Below are positions 11,252 through 64,000 of a stretch of 64,000 nt of DNA, in pieces (the stretch's first letter is position 1; the number at the start of each line of letters is the position of its first letter). The DNA is from an uncultured delta proteobacterium. GTDB taxonomy: Bacteria > Desulfobacterota > Binatia > UBA9968. The DNA lies in NCBI GenBank assembly GCA_963737905.1, contig CAVTUQ010000027.1, forward strand, positions 64,001-128,000. Direction: 5' to 3'. The position numbers and the translations under genes were made by a program. Below the pieces are notes generated by a model. The model ran no database searches and was not told where the DNA came from. It saw only the letters and a list, made by a program, of their open reading frames with translations.

Positions 11252-11566
11252 ATGAAGTATGCAGTCATTAGAACAGGTGGGAAGCAGTACCGTGTCTCCG
11301 AAGGGCAGCTTGTCAAAGTCGAGAAGCTCGCGGGTGCGGTGGGTGACACGGTGACATTGGCTGATGTGTTGTTCATTGGCGGCAATGGCGAAGTCAAAAT
11401 CGGCTCGCCGTTGGTATCCAACGCTACGGTGACGGGCGAGATCGTCAGTCAGGCTAGAGCAAAGAAAATACTGGTCTTCAAAAAGAAAAGGCGCAAAAGT
11501 TATAGCCGCCAGCACGGCCACCGCCAGTATCAAACAACTCTAAAGATCACGGCAATCGAAGCCTAA
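11252..11566 (+). CDS. rplU: 50S ribosomal protein L21
   Basis: MKYAVIRTGGKQYRV...GHRQ. Confidence 0.98.
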   Translation: MKYAVIRTGGKQYRVSEGQLVKVEKLAGAVGDTVTLADVLFIGGNGEVKIGSPLVSNATVTGEIVSQARAKKILVFKKKRRKSYSRQHGHRQYQTTLKITAIEA

Positions 11567-57097: not shown

Positions 57098-57173
57098 TCC
57101 CCGGTAGCTCAGTCGGTAGAGCAGTTGGCTGTTAACCAATTGGTCGGGGGTTCGAGTCCCTCCCGGGGAGCCA
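57098..57173 (+). tRNA. tRNA-Asn (GTT)
   Basis: 76 nt, acceptor TCCCCGG/CCGGGGA, D-arm AGCTCAGTCGGTAGAGC, anticodon GTT 57131-57133, GTTCGAGTC T-loop, encoded CCA. Confidence 0.98.
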
Positions 57174-57365
57174 GATTTCAGAAAGGCCACTTTTCAATCG
57201 AGAAGTGGCCTTTTGCTTTTGGTAGGCAGAGTTCGTAAGTGCAAGTATGTCAAAGGGTTTTCGGTAGTTAGGAATCAGGGTGCCGTCTTTCCAAAGGCAG
57301 TTCGAGAGTACAAAATCGAGGATACGTCGCTTCTCCTTCATTTCTTGTTTTTCGTAAAGCTTGAG
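57132..57365 (-). pseudogene. C-terminal remnant of a large serine recombinase (integrase) running into the tRNA antisense strand
   Basis: LYEKQEMKEKRRILDFVLSNCLWKDGTLIPNYRKPFDILA...WLPGRDSNP resembles C-termini of tRNA-targeting recombinase-family proteins; catalytic domain absent. Confidence 0.7.
57182..57220 (+). terminator. Terminator hairpin after tRNA-Asn (inside the element)
   Basis: AAAGGCCACTT / AAGTGGCCTTT stem followed by T-rich tract. Confidence 0.75.
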
Positions 57366-57549
57366 CCCCGACCTTCTAAGCCGCTTCGAGCAAGTTGCAC
57401 GCGAGCAGCTCAAGCAGGTCGTGACCAACAGGGTCTCTCAGTTTTTCATCGTGGATTCTTACAAAGTCGAGGGCAAGGATCCGCTCGTGGACCGTACCCG
57501 GTCGCAATTCGGGTTGAGTTTATTTTATCCCTTGGATAACAAGGTATCC

Positions 57550-57614
57550 TTGTTAAATTAGAAGATTAATAAACTCTCGATTTGCGCAGGTTTAATAATC
57601 TGCTAATTTAACAA
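57550..57614. promoter_or_regulatory. Long inverted repeat, probable AbiEi autoregulatory operator
   Basis: 25-nt arms 57550-57574 and 57590-57614, 23/25 complementary, ending 2 nt before the abiEi ATG. Confidence 0.8.
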
Positions 57615-57616
57615 AC

Positions 57617-58414
57617 ATGGCTAGTTCTACAGGCAGCAAAATAAACCAGCTCCTCAAGGCATGGCCGTCCGGCACGGTGGCGGTGTTGCCCTGGCTCGAA
57701 AAACAGGGCGTCTATCAACAGCTCGTCCACGAATACGAAAAAACTTCCTGGGTACGCACGATAGGCCGCGGCGCCTATGCCAGGGCAGGCGATAAGGTCG
57801 AATGGACGGGCGGTTTGTATGCCATACAAGAGCAAATGGGTCTTCCCATACATGCGGGCGGAAAAACCGCTCTTCAAATACAGGGATATGCCCATTTCCT
57901 TGCGATGGGAAAAGGCGCAACAGTATCGCTCTTCGGACCTCCCGATATGAAACTGCCCGCGTGGTTCAAGCATTATCGCTGGGATATCAAAGTCCGCTAC
58001 ACCGCGACAAATCTTTTTGCCGGGCAAGTCGATCAGGGGCTCACCAAAAAGGACATGGGGCCGTATTCGATCAAAGTATCCGCACCCGAGCGCGCCATGA
58101 TGGAAGTTTTGTATGGAGTTCCACTAGTCGAGTCCTTTGAGGAGGCGAAATTACTAATGGAGGGGCTTACCACATTACGCCCCCGAGTTGTGCAGAGCTT
58201 GTTAGAAAAATGTGCCTCGGTCAAGGTCAAGCGGCTATTCATGCTTCTTGCCGAAAGCTGCAAACATGCCTGGGTAAGAAAAATCGACCTGACGAACGTG
58301 GACTTCGGAAAAGGAAAACGCGCCCTGGTTAAGGGAGGACGCTTCGATCCCAAATACCAAATCACCGTTCCGAATATAGCACCCGCGGGCTCTGCTCCTG
58401 GAGCGCGCTCTTGA
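57617..58414 (+). CDS. abiEi: Type IV TA antitoxin AbiEi (transcriptional regulator)
   Basis: SKINQLL, HAGGKTAL, SAPERAMME, LTTLRP, SVKVKRLF. Confidence 0.9.
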   Translation: MASSTGSKINQLLKAWPSGTVAVLPWLEKQGVYQQLVHEYEKTSWVRTIGRGAYARAGDKVEWTGGLYAIQEQMGLPIHAGGKTALQIQGYAHFLAMGKGATVSLFGPPDMKLPAWFKHYRWDIKVRYTATNLFAGQVDQGLTKKDMGPYSIKVSAPERAMMEVLYGVPLVESFEEAKLLMEGLTTLRPRVVQSLLEKCASVKVKRLFMLLAESCKHAWVRKIDLTNVDFGKGKRALVKGGRFDPKYQITVPNIAPAGSAPGARS

Positions 58415-59331
58415 AGGACAGCCCGTTCTTCAAACAAGCCGAATTGATGTTGAAAACAATACCGCACGTCGCTGCGGAAAACTGTTTTGCATTGAAAGGC
58501 GGCACGGCGATCAATCTGTTTGTGCGGGACATGCCGCGATTATCGGTGGACATCGATCTGGCATATCTGCCGGTGGATGAACCGCGCGAAACGGCACTGA
58601 AAAAGAGCAGTGAAGCCCTCGGCCGCATTGCGTCCGCAATCAAGAAAGCGATTGCGGGTACGAGGGTTCAGGAAAGTCGAGCTCGTGAACCAGATCATGT
58701 GATAAGGCTTATCGTCTCGACAGGGACGACGCGAATCAAAATCGAGCCGAACGAAGTCATTCGAGGAGCGGTCTTTCCGTCAGTGGTGCGTGAGTTAAGC
58801 CGGCACGCGGAGGATCTTTTCGAGCTTTCGGTGAGCGCTCTCTCTCTTTCGCTGGCTGATCTTTATGGCGGTAAACTCTGTGCTGCGCTGGACCGCCAGC
58901 ACCCACGGGATTTGTTCGACGTGAAGATTCTCCTGGACAACGAGGGCATCACAGACGAGATCCGCAGGGCCTTTGTCGTCTATCTCGCGAGCCACGATCG
59001 ACCGATCCATGAACTGCTTGATCCCAAACGGAAAGACGTGCGGCGGATCTATGAGAACGAGTTTGCCGGTATGCCGATTGAGGAGATCGCTTACAAAGAC
59101 CTGATCGCGGCTAGGGAGACGCTTATTGAGACGTTGAAGAAGGAATTGACTGATGGCGAAAAGACATTTCTTGTTTCGATAAAGTCGGGCGAACCAAACT
59201 GGAGCGTGATGGGCATCGAAGGTATTGAGAAACTTCCGGCGCTTCAGTGGAAACTGGTCAACATTCAGAAAATAGGGGCAAAGAAACGTACCGAATTACT
59301 GGCCAAACTTAAAAGAACGCTCGGATTGTAG
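58411..59331 (+). CDS. abiEii: Type IV TA toxin AbiEii/AbiGii nucleotidyltransferase
   Basis: FALKGGTAINLF...RLSVDIDL NTase motif, GGKLCAALDRQHPRDLFD; 4-nt overlap with the antitoxin. Confidence 0.92.
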   Translation: MKDSPFFKQAELMLKTIPHVAAENCFALKGGTAINLFVRDMPRLSVDIDLAYLPVDEPRETALKKSSEALGRIASAIKKAIAGTRVQESRAREPDHVIRLIVSTGTTRIKIEPNEVIRGAVFPSVVRELSRHAEDLFELSVSALSLSLADLYGGKLCAALDRQHPRDLFDVKILLDNEGITDEIRRAFVVYLASHDRPIHELLDPKRKDVRRIYENEFAGMPIEEIAYKDLIAARETLIETLKKELTDGEKTFLVSIKSGEPNWSVMGIEGIEKLPALQWKLVNIQKIGAKKRTELLAKLKRTLGL

Positions 59332-59402
59332 TGCGGCCGAACCAGTCAAAATCAATCGCCGGCACGTGATAGTCAAAGCAGAAATCAACTCGCGACAATC
59401 GC

Positions 59403-59786
59403 TCAGGTCCGTGGGGGAGCAAAACCTACAGAGTGAGCCCATTTCAAGAACTTATCGTGAAGTAGGGGAGCCGACTCCTTCCAGAGTCCTTGACTCGGGA
59501 ATGTCACAAAGAAGGAAGGTTCGTTAAATTCGCCACATTCGACTTTGAAGTTTTCGCTGGTCAGCAACAGGGGATATCCAGAGCCCGTCCCATGCGGACG
59601 CAAGAGGAAATCGACGCCGCCCAAACTAATAGGCGTACCGTCACGTATCCCGAGTTGCCTCATGTTTTCCCGAGTCTGGATTAGCTGGCCGAAATCGAGA
59701 TCTTTTCTCCGCTCTTGATGCAGGTAATAAGCGCACTGCAACGTGTCAATCCCGTGGAGTAGTAACTTATGAGAGCCTGTATCCAT
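59403..59786 (-). pseudogene. Truncated N-terminus of a replication initiation factor (Rep_trans-like)
   Basis: LLLHGIDTLQCAY, HGTGSGYP, PSFFVTF.S.GLW; stops before the expected catalytic RxD region. Confidence 0.55.
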
Positions 59787-59823
59787 GTTTGATTCTCAAA
59801 CCGTCTGCTTACGGCCTGCCCGA

Positions 59824-60294
59824 CTATTTGCCCGGTCGGGTGCGCGTGCGGCGTTGTTTCGCCGCCCGCGCACCGCGCTCAGCGATCCGGGGCTGAAGTG
59901 AGCCTAATGATGCTGGCTTGGAACGGGCATTATCCTCTTGTTTACGAGGCGCTTTTCCTTCTTCTGATTCTTCTATCTCACCCGTCTCTGTCTCCATTTC
60001 CTTGAGGTACTTGTTCACGAGGTCGTCATACCGTTTCCTATCACCCAACACCTCGTCCGGACCCGTCTCCTCCTCCCCTGAGTAGGGGTTGCTGGGGAAT
60101 CCTTCAGCCACATCTTCCAAAGCTGTAGCAAGCAAATCCCCGATAATCTCCGTCTTTGTTTTCTTCGGAAACATTTCACAAAGAGCCGAGATTTTCGCAG
60201 TCACGTGCAGCGGAAGCCTAATCGACATTTGTTTAGGAGTGAGCCGAGTATTGTCCGGCGCGGTCCACACTTTGAGGAGATCTTTAGTTGGCAT
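59824..60294 (-). CDS. Small ribbon-helix-helix-like protein of the element
   Basis: WTAPDNTRLT.KQMSIRLPLHVTAKISALCEMFP.KTKTEIIGDLLATAL (beta strand + two helices); RBS GAAGG. Confidence 0.65.
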   Translation of the reverse strand: MPTKDLLKVWTAPDNTRLTPKQMSIRLPLHVTAKISALCEMFPKKTKTEIIGDLLATALEDVAEGFPSNPYSGEEETGPDEVLGDRKRYDDLVNKYLKEMETETGEIEESEEGKAPRKQEDNARSKPASLGSLQPRIAERGARAAKQRRTRTRPGK

Positions 60295-60312
60295 ATTTGT
60301 TCACCTTCCGCT

Positions 60313-60329
60313 AAATGTCATATCGACAT
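60313..60329. promoter_or_regulatory. Palindrome upstream of the RHH-like gene
   Basis: AATGTC-ATATC-GACATT with further AATGTC/AATGTT half sites up to ~60353. Confidence 0.4.
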
Positions 60330-60356
60330 TCGTAATTAATGTCAAGTGAATGTTAC

Positions 60357-60460
60357 AGGCCGGAAAAAAAATATTGATCCCGGATGCAACACGGCTGTAT
60401 TGTCCCTTTTTATGGCGCTAGGCTTCCTACAGCTGCGCCGGTTAACGGTCGGCGTTTAAA
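60357..60460 (+). other. Degenerate attC-like hairpin 1
   Basis: CCGG...GGCTGTA pairs with TACAGCT...CCGG; right end CCGGTTAAC-GGTCGGC-GTTTAAA shortly before the next ATG. Confidence 0.35.
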
Positions 60461-60486
60461 GACCAAACAGGGGGCATAGACAACTA

Positions 60487-61677
60487 ATGCCATTACTCGA
60501 TCTGTGGAATGAATCTCCAGATCAGTTGAAGGACAAGCAGATCCAACAACTGATCGCTTTTGCGGGTGCGGGAAAGCTCATCGATGGAAGCAAGTGTTGT
60601 GAAGAATTCCGATCTTTTCTCGCAACTGTGCCGTCAGCAAATCTCACTGGGTATGCAGACCAGTGTCTCAGCCATTCTTTTCCCGATTCAGGGTTAGCAC
60701 TCCAAGATGTCGTCAACGAGGTTGGGTCGAGAATTGGTGCGGATGTTGAGCACGGTCGTTATCGAGGTACTTCAAAGCATTTGGGCTTCGACGGATGGTG
60801 GACATTCCCCAATCGGCATTCGATCATTGTTGAGGTAAAAACGACAGATGCATACCGAATAGATCTGAATACAATTGCTGCTTATCGCAAAGGATTGATT
60901 GAAGAAAGTAGCATTTCAGAATCATCTTCTTCCATGCTCCTGATCGTAGGACGTCAAGATACAGGAGATATGGAAGCACAAATTCGCGGATCTCGTTATG
61001 CTTGGGACATTCGCATAATAAGCGTCGATGCTTTACTTCGCCTAATGGCCATAAAGGAAGAGGTCGAAGATCCTCAAATCATTCAGCGTATACACAGCAT
61101 TCTTATTCCCAGAGAATTTACGCGCCTCGACGAAATCGCAGACGTTTTGTTTTCTGCTGCGGAAGACATTAAGCAGGAGACAGTCGAAGCAGCAGAAGGA
61201 GAAGAGGAAGTTACAGATACAAACAAGACGAAGCAGCCAAAATTCACCCCGGTAGCATTCCACGATGCTTGTATGGCAAGGGTTCAATCTGTTCTCGGTG
61301 AAACACTAGTCAAGCGCTCTCGGGCCAACTATTCATCTCCGGATAAATCTATCGTTGTCAATTGCGCTGTCTCGAAGGAACACAATCCAGAAACCAATCC
61401 AAACTACTGGTTCGCATTCCACCCTCATCAAAGGGAATCCTTGCAAAGTAGCTCGAAGTCATACGTTGTGTTTGGTTGCGGAAGCAGTAAGCGCATTTTA
61501 TTAATCCCATTCTCAGATTTTCAGTCATGGCTTAACGGTATGTGGATCACACAAAGAGAAGATTCGTACTATTGGCATGTCGTAATTTATAGAGCAGGCG
61601 AAAAGTACTCCCTTCACAGGAAGAAAGGGGAGAAGAATATTGATGTAACGAAATACCTACTGCCAGAAAATGTATAA
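60487..61677 (+). CDS. Hypothetical protein with PD-(D/E)xK (Mrr-like) restriction endonuclease motif
   Basis: GFDGWW...IIVEVKTT, acidic linker, second C-terminal domain (AVSKEH, YWFAFHPHQ). Confidence 0.65.
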   Translation: MPLLDLWNESPDQLKDKQIQQLIAFAGAGKLIDGSKCCEEFRSFLATVPSANLTGYADQCLSHSFPDSGLALQDVVNEVGSRIGADVEHGRYRGTSKHLGFDGWWTFPNRHSIIVEVKTTDAYRIDLNTIAAYRKGLIEESSISESSSSMLLIVGRQDTGDMEAQIRGSRYAWDIRIISVDALLRLMAIKEEVEDPQIIQRIHSILIPREFTRLDEIADVLFSAAEDIKQETVEAAEGEEEVTDTNKTKQPKFTPVAFHDACMARVQSVLGETLVKRSRANYSSPDKSIVVNCAVSKEHNPETNPNYWFAFHPHQRESLQSSSKSYVVFGCGSSKRILLIPFSDFQSWLNGMWITQREDSYYWHVVIYRAGEKYSLHRKKGEKNIDVTKYLLPENV

Positions 61678-61687
61678 TAAAAACGCA

Positions 61688-61738
61688 ACGTAACAGCTCG
61701 ACGAAAGACCGGCGGCCGGTATGTCGGAGTTGTTTACC
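61688..61738 (+). other. Imperfect hairpin, attC-like 2
   Basis: GTAACAGCTCGAC..ACCGGC G GCCGGT..GTCGGAGTTGTTTAC bulged stem just after the stop codon. Confidence 0.4.
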
Positions 61739-61775
61739 TGCTGTACGAAGTGCGGAGATTGACAGAGGAGAAAAT

Positions 61776-62453
61776 ATGGCTGAACAGAAAAAGAGTTTTC
61801 CTATGCTGCCCATTGCCCACTGGTGGGCTTTGCGAAAGAAGTTCAAGCAGAGCATACCTGGGGTTGTAACAGATAATTATCTTGCCACAGTACTCGAAAT
61901 GGGAGTCAACTCTGCACGTGCGAACGTTCTGCCATACTTAAAGAGTCTTGGAATCATTGACGATGAGGGGAAAACGGTCGATAGGGCAAGGCAGTGGAGG
62001 GACGATGAGCACTACGCTGAGGTCTGTAAAGCAATGGTCAAAGAGGTCTATCCAAAGGACCTATTAGAGGCGGTTCCAAATCCGGATCACGAGCGCACTA
62101 AGGCCGAGCGTTGGTTCGCTAATCACACCGGTGCAGGAGATAATGCTGTAAAACGCATGGCAGCTCTCTACGCTGTAATGGTTAAAGCGGACACATCCCA
62201 TCAGCCTGACCAAGAAAAGGCTCGAACTCGAAATAGGGACAAAGAACCAGCGAAGACCAAGCCGAGCAAGAACGCTACCAGTACCGTTCCTCCTGTAGAA
62301 TCCGGTACTCAACGAGATTCAACCAACCTGTCACGACAACAAGCGCCAGGAATCAACATTAACCTAGAAATTCACATCTCAGCTGATGCCACCTCCGACC
62401 AGATAGATCAGATCTTCGAAAGCATGGCAAAACACATCTATAGGCATTCCTGA
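61776..62453 (+). CDS. DUF5343-like protein
   Basis: IPGVVTDNYL, LPYLKSLGIIDDEG, low-complexity linker, C-terminal ININLEIHI...IDQIFESMAKHI. Confidence 0.75.
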   Translation: MAEQKKSFPMLPIAHWWALRKKFKQSIPGVVTDNYLATVLEMGVNSARANVLPYLKSLGIIDDEGKTVDRARQWRDDEHYAEVCKAMVKEVYPKDLLEAVPNPDHERTKAERWFANHTGAGDNAVKRMAALYAVMVKADTSHQPDQEKARTRNRDKEPAKTKPSKNATSTVPPVESGTQRDSTNLSRQQAPGININLEIHISADATSDQIDQIFESMAKHIYRHS

Positions 62454-62457
62454 ATAA

Positions 62458-62976
62458 ATGTCTGCAAATGGTCGATATGCACTAGAGCTTGCCAAGAGGC
62501 TGAAAGCGGAGGCACCAAAAACGTTTGTTCCTCCCTCAGAAGGCACCAGACCCACAAATGAATTCATTCTTCCGCACGCCCTTGTACGTAAGACAAGGGG
62601 TTATATCGAAAGGGTCGTATTTCAAATAAACGGTTCCTACGAAAAGGGTTGGTTCGATGGTTGCGCGGTCATGATGCGTCGCCTGATCGAAACGTTGATA
62701 ATCGAATGTTTCGAGAAATATACAATTGCTGACAAGATCAAGAATCCGAAAACCGGAGACTTCCTCGCTTTAGGGGATCTCATCGAAAAAATGATTCAAG
62801 AGACAAGCTGGAACCTTGGAAGAAACACAAAACAGGCGTTACCCCGACTTAAGAATATCGGCGACCAGTCTGCACACAGCCGAAGATATAACGCACACCG
62901 CGAGGACATCGATAAGATATCTCATGATTTTCGAGTGGTTTGCCAGGAGCTCATCTACATTGCTGCTCTGAAATAG
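62458..62976 (+). CDS. DUF4145-like HEPN domain protein
   Basis: All-helical; DGCAVMMRRLIETLI and RLKNIGDQSAH (HEPN-type motif). Confidence 0.72.
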   Translation: MSANGRYALELAKRLKAEAPKTFVPPSEGTRPTNEFILPHALVRKTRGYIERVVFQINGSYEKGWFDGCAVMMRRLIETLIIECFEKYTIADKIKNPKTGDFLALGDLIEKMIQETSWNLGRNTKQALPRLKNIGDQSAHSRRYNAHREDIDKISHDFRVVCQELIYIAALK

Positions 62977-62978
62977 GC

Positions 62979-63108
62979 AACTAACCGGCGCCGGCTACTC
63001 CGCCAGATAGAGGGATTAAACCTCGAGTCTTCAGGTCTTATCACGCACATCGCGCTGCTGAATCTCCCAAATTCTTTTTTAACCGCCCGGTAGCTCGCGG
63101 GATTAGTA
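62979..63108 (+). other. Long imperfect inverted repeat, attC-like 3
   Basis: ACTAACCGGCGCCGGCTAC ... GTAGCTCGCGGGATTAGT beginning just after the stop codon. Confidence 0.4.
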
Positions 63109-63147
63109 CCGCCAATTCACTTTCCACTCACTTCTTGATCGTATTTT

Positions 63148-63178
63148 GCACCCCCCGTGTTACTGAAAACGGGGGGCT
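63148..63178 (-). other. Putative rolling-circle nick site (dso/oriT) hairpin
   Basis: Minus strand GCCCCCCGT-TTTCAGTAAC-ACGGGGGGTGC: C6/G6 stem with TAAC in the loop. Confidence 0.5.
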
Positions 63179-63188
63179 TGGGCGTAGT

Positions 63189-63404
63189 CTAATGAAATGT
63201 CAATCTATGTTGGAGAGGAAAATCGAATCCCGACTCCGGATCACAAGTCTCACAAAAGATGAGGTATCCATGGCCCTTTGGGTGCAGGCACAAAGTGACG
63301 GTGTGACCATTGGCGACGTGCCGCTTAATGAATTCACCGAACGACTCCAACACGAAATCTAACTCGCGGTTTCTTTTGTCATGCTTAACTTTTATCTGAC
63401 TCAT
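63189..63404 (-). CDS. Small Cys/His-containing hypothetical protein
   Basis: 71 aa, AAAGGA RBS, CLHPKGH...CETC motif; ATGA overlap with the reconstructed integrase tail. Confidence 0.55.
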   Translation of the reverse strand: MSQIKVKHDKRNRELDFVLESFGEFIKRHVANGHTVTLCLHPKGHGYLIFCETCDPESGFDFPLQHRLTFH

Positions 63405-63511
63405 AAGGGCTTTCCTTTCATTCTGTCGTACTTCGCTGCGGAATTTGTGATGAAGGGAAGATGCACTTCCCAGTGCCCAATATTGGCAGGTCTGGGGAGC
63501 CAGTTTAGACG

Positions 63512-63552
63512 AGAAAGCCCTTCGGCAATATGTCGAAGGGCTTTCTGTATTT
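63512..63552 (+). terminator. Terminator just outside attR (likely the original tRNA-Asn terminator)
   Basis: Perfect 13-bp stem AGAAAGCCCTTCG / CGAAGGGCTTTCT, 8 nt after the duplicated tRNA end. Confidence 0.8.
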
Positions 63553-63802
63553 TGGAACTACAGTTAATCGCTCGCTAGACCAAGACGGTGTCTTACCGTC
63601 TAGATTAGCCTTGCCATTCTCCCAAATAGCTGTTGTCACAACGCTGTCACCCAAGCGTTTCGGGTCGCATTCAGCTTAAAACCTATCCGATCAGTTCAAT
63701 CCTGGGGTGAAATCATGCAGTAAGCTGTTGAACAGTTGCGTGTGCCAGGACTATGATACCTGCTAAAATCTCCATTATTACAAGCGTGTGAGGAGGTGAT
63801 CC

Positions 63803-64000
63803 ATGGTTACCACGGCACAATACAAGAGTGGCGAAATCATCATCTGTGAAAACGACCAGGGTGAGACAGCGTATGTCATCGAGAGTGGTCGAGTTGAAGT
63901 GACCAAGGACCTGCAAGGCAAAAACATTCACCTTACGTACCTTTACCCGGGCGAAACCTTCGGCGAAATGAGCATGATAGACGACAAGCCACGTAGTGCA
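63803..64000 (+). CDS. Cyclic nucleotide-binding (Crp-type) domain protein, partial
   Basis: RBS AGGAGG; YVIESGRVEV...GETFGEMSMIDDKPRSA phosphate-binding cassette. Confidence 0.88.
   Translation, partial: MVTTAQYKSGEIIICENDQGETAYVIESGRVEVTKDLQGKNIHLTYLYPGETFGEMSMIDDKPRSA

Follow-up and report, generated by a model that had tools for sequence, protein, structure and literature searches.

Large serine recombinases that read into tRNA genes: a decayed island at a tRNA-Asn gene and the family to which its integrase remnant belongs

In the Myxococcus phage Mx8 the attP site lies inside the integrase (Int, or IntP) coding sequence, and integration gives rise to a recombinant gene whose 3' end is new (PMC6070905). 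The Mx8 and SSV integrases are both described as ones that 'extend across attP' (PMC4383910), and the archaeal 'suicidal' integrases of the SSV type have their recombination site within the integrase open reading frame (ORF) (PMC7253208, PMC4383910). Integration-dependent immunity in mycobacteriophage BPs similarly involves an att site inside a gene, the product of which is remodelled on integration (PMC4557955). Integration by serine recombinases at tRNA genes is called rare in an earlier paper, which names phiRSM1 (tRNA-Ser) and eight Mycobacterium AICEs (integrative, conjugative elements of actinomycetes; tRNA-Leu) (PMC3218068). Here we describe a locus in a 64-kb stretch of DNA from an uncultured delta proteobacterium (the window; contig CAVTUQ010000027.1, positions 64,001 to 128,000), where the 3' end of a large serine recombinase (LSR) gene reads through a short repeated core into the antisense strand of a tRNA-Asn gene, at the edge of a 6.3-kb element that we call E1. 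An original prediction for this locus had proposed an integrase remodelled by its own integration, and we refer to it where our results bear on it.

The integration target is the tRNA-Asn(gtt) gene at 57098–57173 (plus strand; ARAGORN). The first core copy (57165–57174, attL) has the sequence GGGGAGCCAG and takes in the tRNA's final 9 nt and one further base, and on the minus strand it reads C-TGG-CTC-CCC, that is, W-L-P. The second copy (63494–63503) would be both the attR of E1 and the core of an older LSR remnant, stump 2. This 10-mer occurs exactly twice in the window against 0.06 copies expected (two or more copies were seen in 0 of 100 shuffles), and there is no third copy downstream as far as the contig end. 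Between the cores the GC content is 45–51%, compared with 53–58% in the flanks. All of this anatomy is read directly from the DNA; the core, the integrase stump, its tail and the geometry of a rebuilt attP had been predicted correctly to the base, as rechecking of coordinates and translations confirmed. We think it likely that 57175–63493 is an integrative island, now dead, that an LSR inserted at the tRNA-Asn gene's 3' end.

Stump 1 (57132–57359, minus strand) comprises the last 76 codons of an LSR gene, and the final 10 of these are tRNA antisense. It lies in a minus-strand ORF (57132–57428) that ends ...KSGLSEIWLPGRDSNPRPIG*, where W-L-P corresponds to the core and the last ten residues to tRNA antisense (terminal residues ...SGLSEIWLPGRDSNPRPIG*). 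Recombinase homology in this ORF is limited to the last 76 codons, and DNA homology to the nearest genomic relative (L001) begins at 57359, from which it follows that 76 codons survive and about 450 have been lost; the gene is thus mostly deleted and a relic, as predicted. The best full-length match (P0001, 533 aa) aligns over residues 452–533 with 90% identity (E 4.5e-42, 84% of the 98-aa ORF covered), and a search for longer proteins yielded 52 relatives among 150 candidates, most of them 520–560 aa. Since the full-length relatives carry Resolvase (PF00239), Recombinase (PF07508) and zinc-ribbon (PF13408) domains, stump 1 is the C-terminus of an LSR, and not of a lambda-type (tyrosine) integrase. 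R24-V25-S26 is invariant among these relatives, their PF07508 and PF13408 domains match the A118 integrase at residues 242–344, and P0001 matches phrog_95 'integrase' (2.8e-81) as well as, by sequence, the integrase structures of A118 (4kis, 6dnw) and TP901-1. Membership in the Ccr or XisF groups was ruled out, as P0001 is below threshold with the CcrA, CcrB, CcrC and XisF models and all NCBIfam equivalog scores are far under their cut-offs. Stump 1 itself retains neither the resolvase domain with its catalytic serine nor the Recombinase and zinc-ribbon domains that its relatives have, and it is recognized by its homology to the C-terminus of full-length LSRs; the window therefore holds a fragment of an LSR gene and not a member protein. 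P0001 has no match in the source assembly (G000; 6.7 Mb, 87% complete) besides stump 1, and with 76 codons remaining and no other LSR of the family in the assembly E1 is immobile.

The overlap of LSR gene and tRNA gene extends far beyond this locus. A genome scan confirmed at least 527 LSR relatives and a metagenome scan at least 569, and 80 loci were kept from each (160 in total, each holding up to 10 kb upstream of the LSR gene); the record titles of the genome-scan relatives name many phyla. A tRNA-antisense tail of the WLPG-x-DSN type ends 17 of the 22 full-length proteins fetched. A tRNA is predicted in antisense at the end of the LSR ORF at 57 of 80 genome loci (including L026, where a tRNA-Asn fragment is followed by a tRNA-Cys) and at 47 of 75 metagenome loci with an aligned C-terminus, such that the stump did lead, as had been suggested, to full-length recombinases beside tRNA genes. 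T-loop antisense without a called tRNA is present at 15 further genome loci and 19 further metagenome loci, non-tRNA tails are found at 5 and 6 loci respectively, and the remainder are contig ends plus one genome locus with an unaligned C-terminus. At 100 of the 104 loci where the LSR gene ends on a tRNA, the antisense of the tRNA CCA is an in-frame TGG tryptophan codon. Most targets are tRNA-Asn genes; tRNAs for Gln (ctg, ttg), Glu, Ser, Ala, Arg and Asp are also represented. The in-frame overlap of the LSR end with a tRNA is thus a trait of the whole multi-phylum family, and because the att crossover falls inside the last LSR codons, integration necessarily exchanges the C-terminal tail; the predicted att site in the 3' end of the integrase gene holds family-wide. 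We also considered whether the extension into the tRNA is an annotation artefact, and rejected this because no earlier in-frame stop is present in relatives from many phyla.

Three proviral contigs (21–45 kb; L082–L084) carry such an LSR at tRNA-Gln, from which we conclude that some family members belong to phages; each contig has one core copy, with the other element end lying off the contig. At six loci (L013, L021, L026, L071, L138, L139) only the 3' part of tRNA-Asn follows the LSR stop, broken in or near the anticodon loop; L071 also has a complete tRNA-Asn 8.7 kb beyond. The pattern suggests that the anticodon loop has served other elements as an insertion site, placing them between tRNA and LSR island. 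At L148 (9913–10795) the LSR frame stays open for about 290 more residues past W-Y-P (...FEVTDGNPNGDPDAGN...), and we take this extension, from its motif, to resemble type I CRISPR Cas7/Csd2, an indication that an LSR element adjoins a cas gene or is fused to it in frame.

Tandem arrangements narrow down where the crossover may occur. The window core reads CTGGCTCCCC in the LSR sense. L037 has two LSR 3' ends, the one 7.7 kb upstream of the other, which is proximal to the tRNA; they share sequence up to TGGCTCC and diverge beyond it, and the block shared at L022 is TGGCTCCC. Identity at element ends is short, being a 10-bp direct repeat in the window and blocks of 7–8 bp at the L037 and L022 tandem junctions. 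If its position is constant across the family, the crossover would fall within TGGCTCC, the 7 nt with which the tRNA ends. A search for exact core copies as attR upstream of intact relatives gave, with the exception of these two tandem junctions, chance-like 8–10-mers in coding regions (L166, L140, L179, L183) only, and most islands of the family probably exceed the 10-kb flanks.

The window is itself a tandem. Directly to the right of core 2, the minus-strand ORF at 63505–63654 reads ...VVPKYRKPFDILPKGFLV* and corresponds to a frameshifted second LSR of a subfamily with a shorter linker (stump 2). It is recovered with stump 1 by tblastn against the whole genome at E 0.005–0.009, and 46 of 59 nt (with 1 gap) are identical to the LSR end of L022, which reads ...EYRRPFDIFVKGPSCSEWLPGEDSN and abuts a tRNA. 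On these alignments stump 2 is the remnant of an older LSR that still abuts its own core, and because this older stump adjoins core 2, E1 would have been inserted later, between the tRNA and the earlier element. The order tRNA–core–E1–core–stump 2, which recurs as a tandem layout in L037 and L022, is the product expected of successive insertions at the tRNA end, indicating tandem accretion. At L022 (11237–11525, minus strand) the tRNA gene that the LSR stump abuts is split by a group I intron (Rfam RF00028, 83.5 bits, 11282–11497), and this tRNA is not called by ARAGORN.

Within the LSR codons next to the core the opposite strand carries a predicted intrinsic terminator for the tRNA. A hairpin with a 15-pair stem at 57181–57214 (plus strand; to 57224 with its tail) lies inside the codons for KATS...KSGLS and is followed by GCTTTTGG, which gives, directly downstream of the tRNA gene, a GC-rich hairpin with a U tract, as in a rho-independent terminator. 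The two strongest terminator-like sites between 56900 and 63800 are this one and 63512–63546, the latter formed by the ...KPFDIL... codons of stump 2; both are on the tRNA-sense strand, start a few bases past a core and lie within LSR coding sequence. Of 99 distinct tails, 32 have a terminator-like site no more than 75 nt downstream of the tRNA, compared with 45 of 1485 control windows in the LSR body, whereas the LSR-sense strand has one in 2 of 100. By target, the positive tails are 29 of 65 at tRNA-Asn, 2 of 2 at Glu, 1 of 1 at Ala and 0 of 26 at Gln.

Covariation was examined in an ungapped alignment (A4) of 25 sequences, the window and 24 of the 65 distinct tRNA-Asn loci, the rows being hand-picked for closeness or a visible hairpin and the structure being derived from the window, both of which favour the result. 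In this alignment 94.4% of the cells of the 15-pair stem are paired and 13 of the 15 pairs have changed on both sides; the stem measures are reached by 0 of 500 shuffles, and controls slid along the alignment pair in 43–64% of cells. There are 43 cells of the G-U type against 3 of the A-C type. The stem is 94.4% paired on the tRNA-sense strand versus 83.7% on the LSR-sense strand, and a mean of 8.2 of the 10 nt past the stem are T. From the asymmetry between G-U and A-C cells it follows that the fold is selected in the tRNA-sense transcript. Our reading is that the element brings a predicted replacement terminator for the tRNA, antisense to the last ~25 LSR codons (...QKKKATS..KSGLS). In a genome of the same family (L133; G410:C33) a terminator of the LSR type (GGCCACTTTTCGAACGAGAGGTGGCC, then a T run) lies about 75 nt past tRNA-Asn, from which a related element is probably present at the same site there; the contig ends some 800 nt beyond it.

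We propose that an LSR of the A118/phiC31 type (resolvase, recombinase, zinc-ribbon) inserted E1 at the 3' end of tRNA-Asn, using an attP in which the crossover falls among the final codons of the LSR gene itself, with TGG (Trp) as the antisense of the tRNA CCA. Integration would close the LSR gene with tRNA antisense, and in a free or tandem form the gene would be closed by whatever the other element arm encodes. The ~25 codons before the crossover would serve twice, the terminator on their opposite strand standing in for the tRNA's own, which the insertion would have displaced. Neither this terminator nor stump 2, nor the lack of an intact LSR in the assembly, was mentioned in the original prediction.

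Its central claim concerned the far end of the island. A putative P arm of the E1 attP (63404–63493, minus strand) becomes joined to stump 1 at the core when attP is rebuilt, and supplies a 30-residue alternative tail. Translation of the minus strand from 63502 to 63401 gives WLPRPANIGHWEVHLPFITNSAAKYDRMKGKPL*, confirming that the rebuilt frame stays open for 30 codons and that its TGA overlaps, as ATGA, the start codon of an ORF for a 71-aa Cys/His protein (63189–63404, minus strand), which lies at the far end of the island and points inward. From this a switch was proposed, in which the LSR forms made in the excised and the integrated state differ in activity and only the circle links int to the 71-aa gene, a directionality or replication factor. 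The core and tail geometry does exist, and the 71-aa ORF, the standing of which had been made to depend on its having homologues, does have them: three proteins, each of 71 aa, are 69–79% identical with conservative substitutions, and 8 clusters came out of 1.84 billion representatives searched with a profile, with H29, G33, H34, C51, C54, D55, P56 and H66 in common. On this conservation the small gene is genuine and rare, and its product has a pattern that resembles a metal site; the gene is co-oriented with the LSR gene inside the element. Mx8 Int offers a precedent for an integrase altered by integration (PMC6070905), and the known directionality factors of LSRs are described as small and structurally diverse (PMC12286644).

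However, the comparisons do not support such a switch. The tRNA-coded tails extend 2–22 residues past the Trp (median 12), and 20 of 100 have 3 residues or fewer. The non-tRNA tails, which represent free attP forms or tandem junctions, range from 1 to more than 100 residues: 1 residue past WLP in P0034 and P0035 and 22 in P0016, about 3 to 28 in L019, L030, L022, L156, L160, L194 and L206, and over 60 in L063, with junction tails of 30 residues both at L037 and in the window. They have no similarity to one another. A conserved second isoform is thus not supported, and the data weigh against a conserved tail. At just 4 of 18 non-tRNA junctions (L027, L044, L156, L160) does an ORF of 40 aa or more begin a few bases or less from the stop, and none of the four is related to the 71-aa protein; a conserved coupled small ORF is not supported. 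A 30-codon open frame ending on ATGA has a chance of ~0.07 by rough estimate (0.95^30 x 1/3), so that the open frame and its ATGA alone are not beyond chance.

Nor does the small protein travel with the recombinase. Among the 160 LSR loci, which hold no more than 10 kb of upstream DNA, no relative of the 71-aa protein or of the P-arm DNA was found, and the protein was not found in any of the 5 whole genomes searched that have LSR relatives 68–84% identical to P0001 (identity from the best tblastn segment; four of the five are among the nearest matches listed). In the phylum of the window 1 of 401 genomes has it, this being the source assembly itself, and in the phylum of genome G433 two of 401 genomes gave weak matches inside frames of 818 and 847 aa; the metagenome and viral scans gave none. 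Co-occurrence with a cognate LSR, which a directionality factor should display, is therefore not seen at the 160 loci or in the five genomes, and the small gene as a partner of the integrase was not borne out, nor was the int-to-small-gene operon as a switch, although the protein could conceivably still be a directionality factor. We regard the switch as improbable. No more probable is its fuller form, in which a multi-phylum clade has fused C-terminal codons, attP crossover and antisense tRNA terminator in ~100 bp, tail exchange regulates direction as in Mx8 Int, and the excised circle alone expresses a 71-aa directionality factor. Both the exchange of tails and the ATGA overlap with the 71-aa ORF are most likely by-products of the geometry.

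Several points weigh against the broader reading of E1 as an LSR island with a replacement terminator. No recombination was observed. The attR is placed by the 10-bp repeat and the adjoining stump 2, and neither an empty site nor a read joint across E1 was obtained from relatives or sequencing runs. The dyad symmetry of the rebuilt attP, attL and attR is not significant, being at best 11 of 22 with a shuffle mean of 11.1. As to the terminator, 67 of 99 tails fail the scan, the positives are nearly all at Asn, Glu and Ala with none at Gln, and the selection of the alignment rows and structure noted above belongs here as well. To our knowledge LSRs recombine only attP with attB, and insertion beside an existing element, that is, into an attL-like target, needs explaining.

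Eight soil-metagenome runs contain 5–13% of sampled window words, with no RNA run listed, and reads of four of these gave fragments only, with no joint across 57174–63504 and with 59400–63490 uncovered. In a contig from run X6, 8 letters matching tRNA ...TCCCTCCC run directly into a core and stump-2-like sequence, which fits a lone element of the stump-2 type at a tRNA-Asn and is too short for evidence. Genomes of the same family are syntenic with the window for the tRNA and the two genes to its left, and diverge from it right after ...GGGGAGCCA. To the right of the array the DNA is not syntenic with relatives; 30 relatives lack an orthologue of the right-flank gene (63803–64669) at this locus, and the genes that follow tRNA-Asn in relatives are on other contigs of G000. 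By its sequence pattern the right-flank gene, of 288 aa (63803–64000, continuing to C27:128666), would begin with a domain resembling the cyclic-nucleotide-binding type. Foreign origin or rearrangement may thus extend to the DNA beyond the array.

A second alternative is that 57175–63493 is not one element at all: core 2 would belong to stump 2 alone with a patchwork in between, the 71-aa ORF and P arm would be foreign to stump 1, and the rebuilt attP would be fictitious. The loss of about 450 LSR codons at 57359/57360 shows that rearrangement did occur, no cargo gene recurs beside relatives except a distant AbiEii in L140, and the right flank, as noted, is not syntenic either. On the other hand, a pair of LSR 3' ends that point the same way, both at identical cores, is the pattern of tandem site-specific insertion, L037 and L022 have the same layout, and the low GC is continuous across the interval; we find a patchwork slightly harder to credit than the switch. 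That a tyrosine integrase elsewhere accounts for the tRNA association, with the LSR merely at the island edge, is highly improbable, for while tRNA targeting is classically a trait of tyrosine integrases (PMC4383910) and the tRNA-Asn 3' halves in L013, L021, L026 and L071 suggest other integrases at the anticodon loop, the LSR frame is fixed to the tRNA CCA at 100 of 104 loci in many phyla and with 8 or more tRNA species as targets, conservation extends to the DNA just upstream of TGG, and identity blocks of 7–10 bp are typical of serine recombinases. Insertion of E1 by an LSR thus stays the preferred reading.

The interior of E1 is that of a decayed defence island of 6.3 kb. An AbiEi antitoxin/regulator gene (57617–58414, plus strand; Pfam PF11459 1.6e-50, PF17194 3.1e-29; PADLOC AbiEi 3e-88) overlaps by 4 nt the gene for the AbiEii nucleotidyltransferase toxin (58411–59331, plus strand; Pfam PF08843 8.5e-37; PADLOC AbiEii 6.1e-115), the adjacent pair that constitutes an AbiE type IV toxin–antitoxin system. 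Inverted repeats upstream of abiEi at 57538–57612 (TTAAATTAGAAGATTAATAAAC ... GTTTAATAATCTGCTAATTTAAC) are probably an operator for AbiEi autoregulation. Three ORFs spanning 59403–61677 (59403–59786 and 59824–60294, minus strand; 60487–61677, plus strand) have no match in Pfam, PADLOC, NCBIfam or PHROGs. They are followed on the plus strand by genes for a DUF5343 protein (61776–62453; 2.1e-9), which also matches the PADLOC candidate defence family PDC-M34A (9.1e-14), and a DUF4145 protein (62458–62976; 4.5e-5, just above the Pfam cut-off).

Serine integrases are valued tools for genome engineering and are usually described with protein-coding targets. The family described here, with at least 527 genome and 569 metagenome stretches, targets the universal CCA end of tRNAs, which is available in nearly every bacterium, and its arrangement illustrates a way of inserting right at the end of a tRNA gene that leaves the tRNA unharmed. 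A replacement terminator antisense within an integrase gene would be dual coding in compact form, and its covariation can be measured. To software that finds islands, the arrangement explains integrase ORFs annotated as running into tRNA genes, and such islands are bounded by repeats of only 7–10 bp. The copy in the window is itself dead, a relic whose interest lies only in pointing to the LSR family.

Compared with the systems described previously, the locus is closest in geometry to Mx8, as the crossover lies inside the integrase ORF and integration makes a new 3' end (here with the W-L-P core, and with TGG in frame at 100 of 104 loci); Mx8 Int is a tyrosine recombinase, whereas a serine recombinase is involved here, which is like Mx8 in geometry and not a member of its group. 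The Mx8 target overlaps a tRNA-Asp gene, and Mx8 Int loses a long C-terminal segment, whereas the window LSR changes only the residues past W-L-P. Altered activity after integration was shown experimentally for Mx8, whereas the comparison here is of sequences and the tails are not conserved. SSV integrases are likewise of the tyrosine type, and their gene is split in two by integration rather than having a short tail exchanged. In BPs the remodelled gene encodes the repressor, which loses a degradation tag; here the integrase itself is remodelled, and no repressor or tag is evident in E1. The LSRs A118, TP901-1, phiC31, Bxb1, Ccr and XisF share with this family the PF00239, PF07508 and PF13408 domains and a short identity core, but unlike them it has a tRNA-end target, an ORF that crosses the crossover site, and a predicted antisense tRNA terminator in its coding tail. 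phiRSM1 and the AICEs, like E1, involve serine-recombinase insertion at a tRNA gene; the passage describing them does not mention an overlap of ORF and crossover, and the phiRSM enzyme is resolvase-like according to the title of a reference cited there (PMC3218068). The literature searched contained no LSR ORF spanning attP at a tRNA end and no antisense terminator in an integrase gene, although the supplementary tables of TIGER/Islander and Integrase-On-Demand may list serine integrases with tRNA targets. We regard the arrangement as a variation on known kinds of system.

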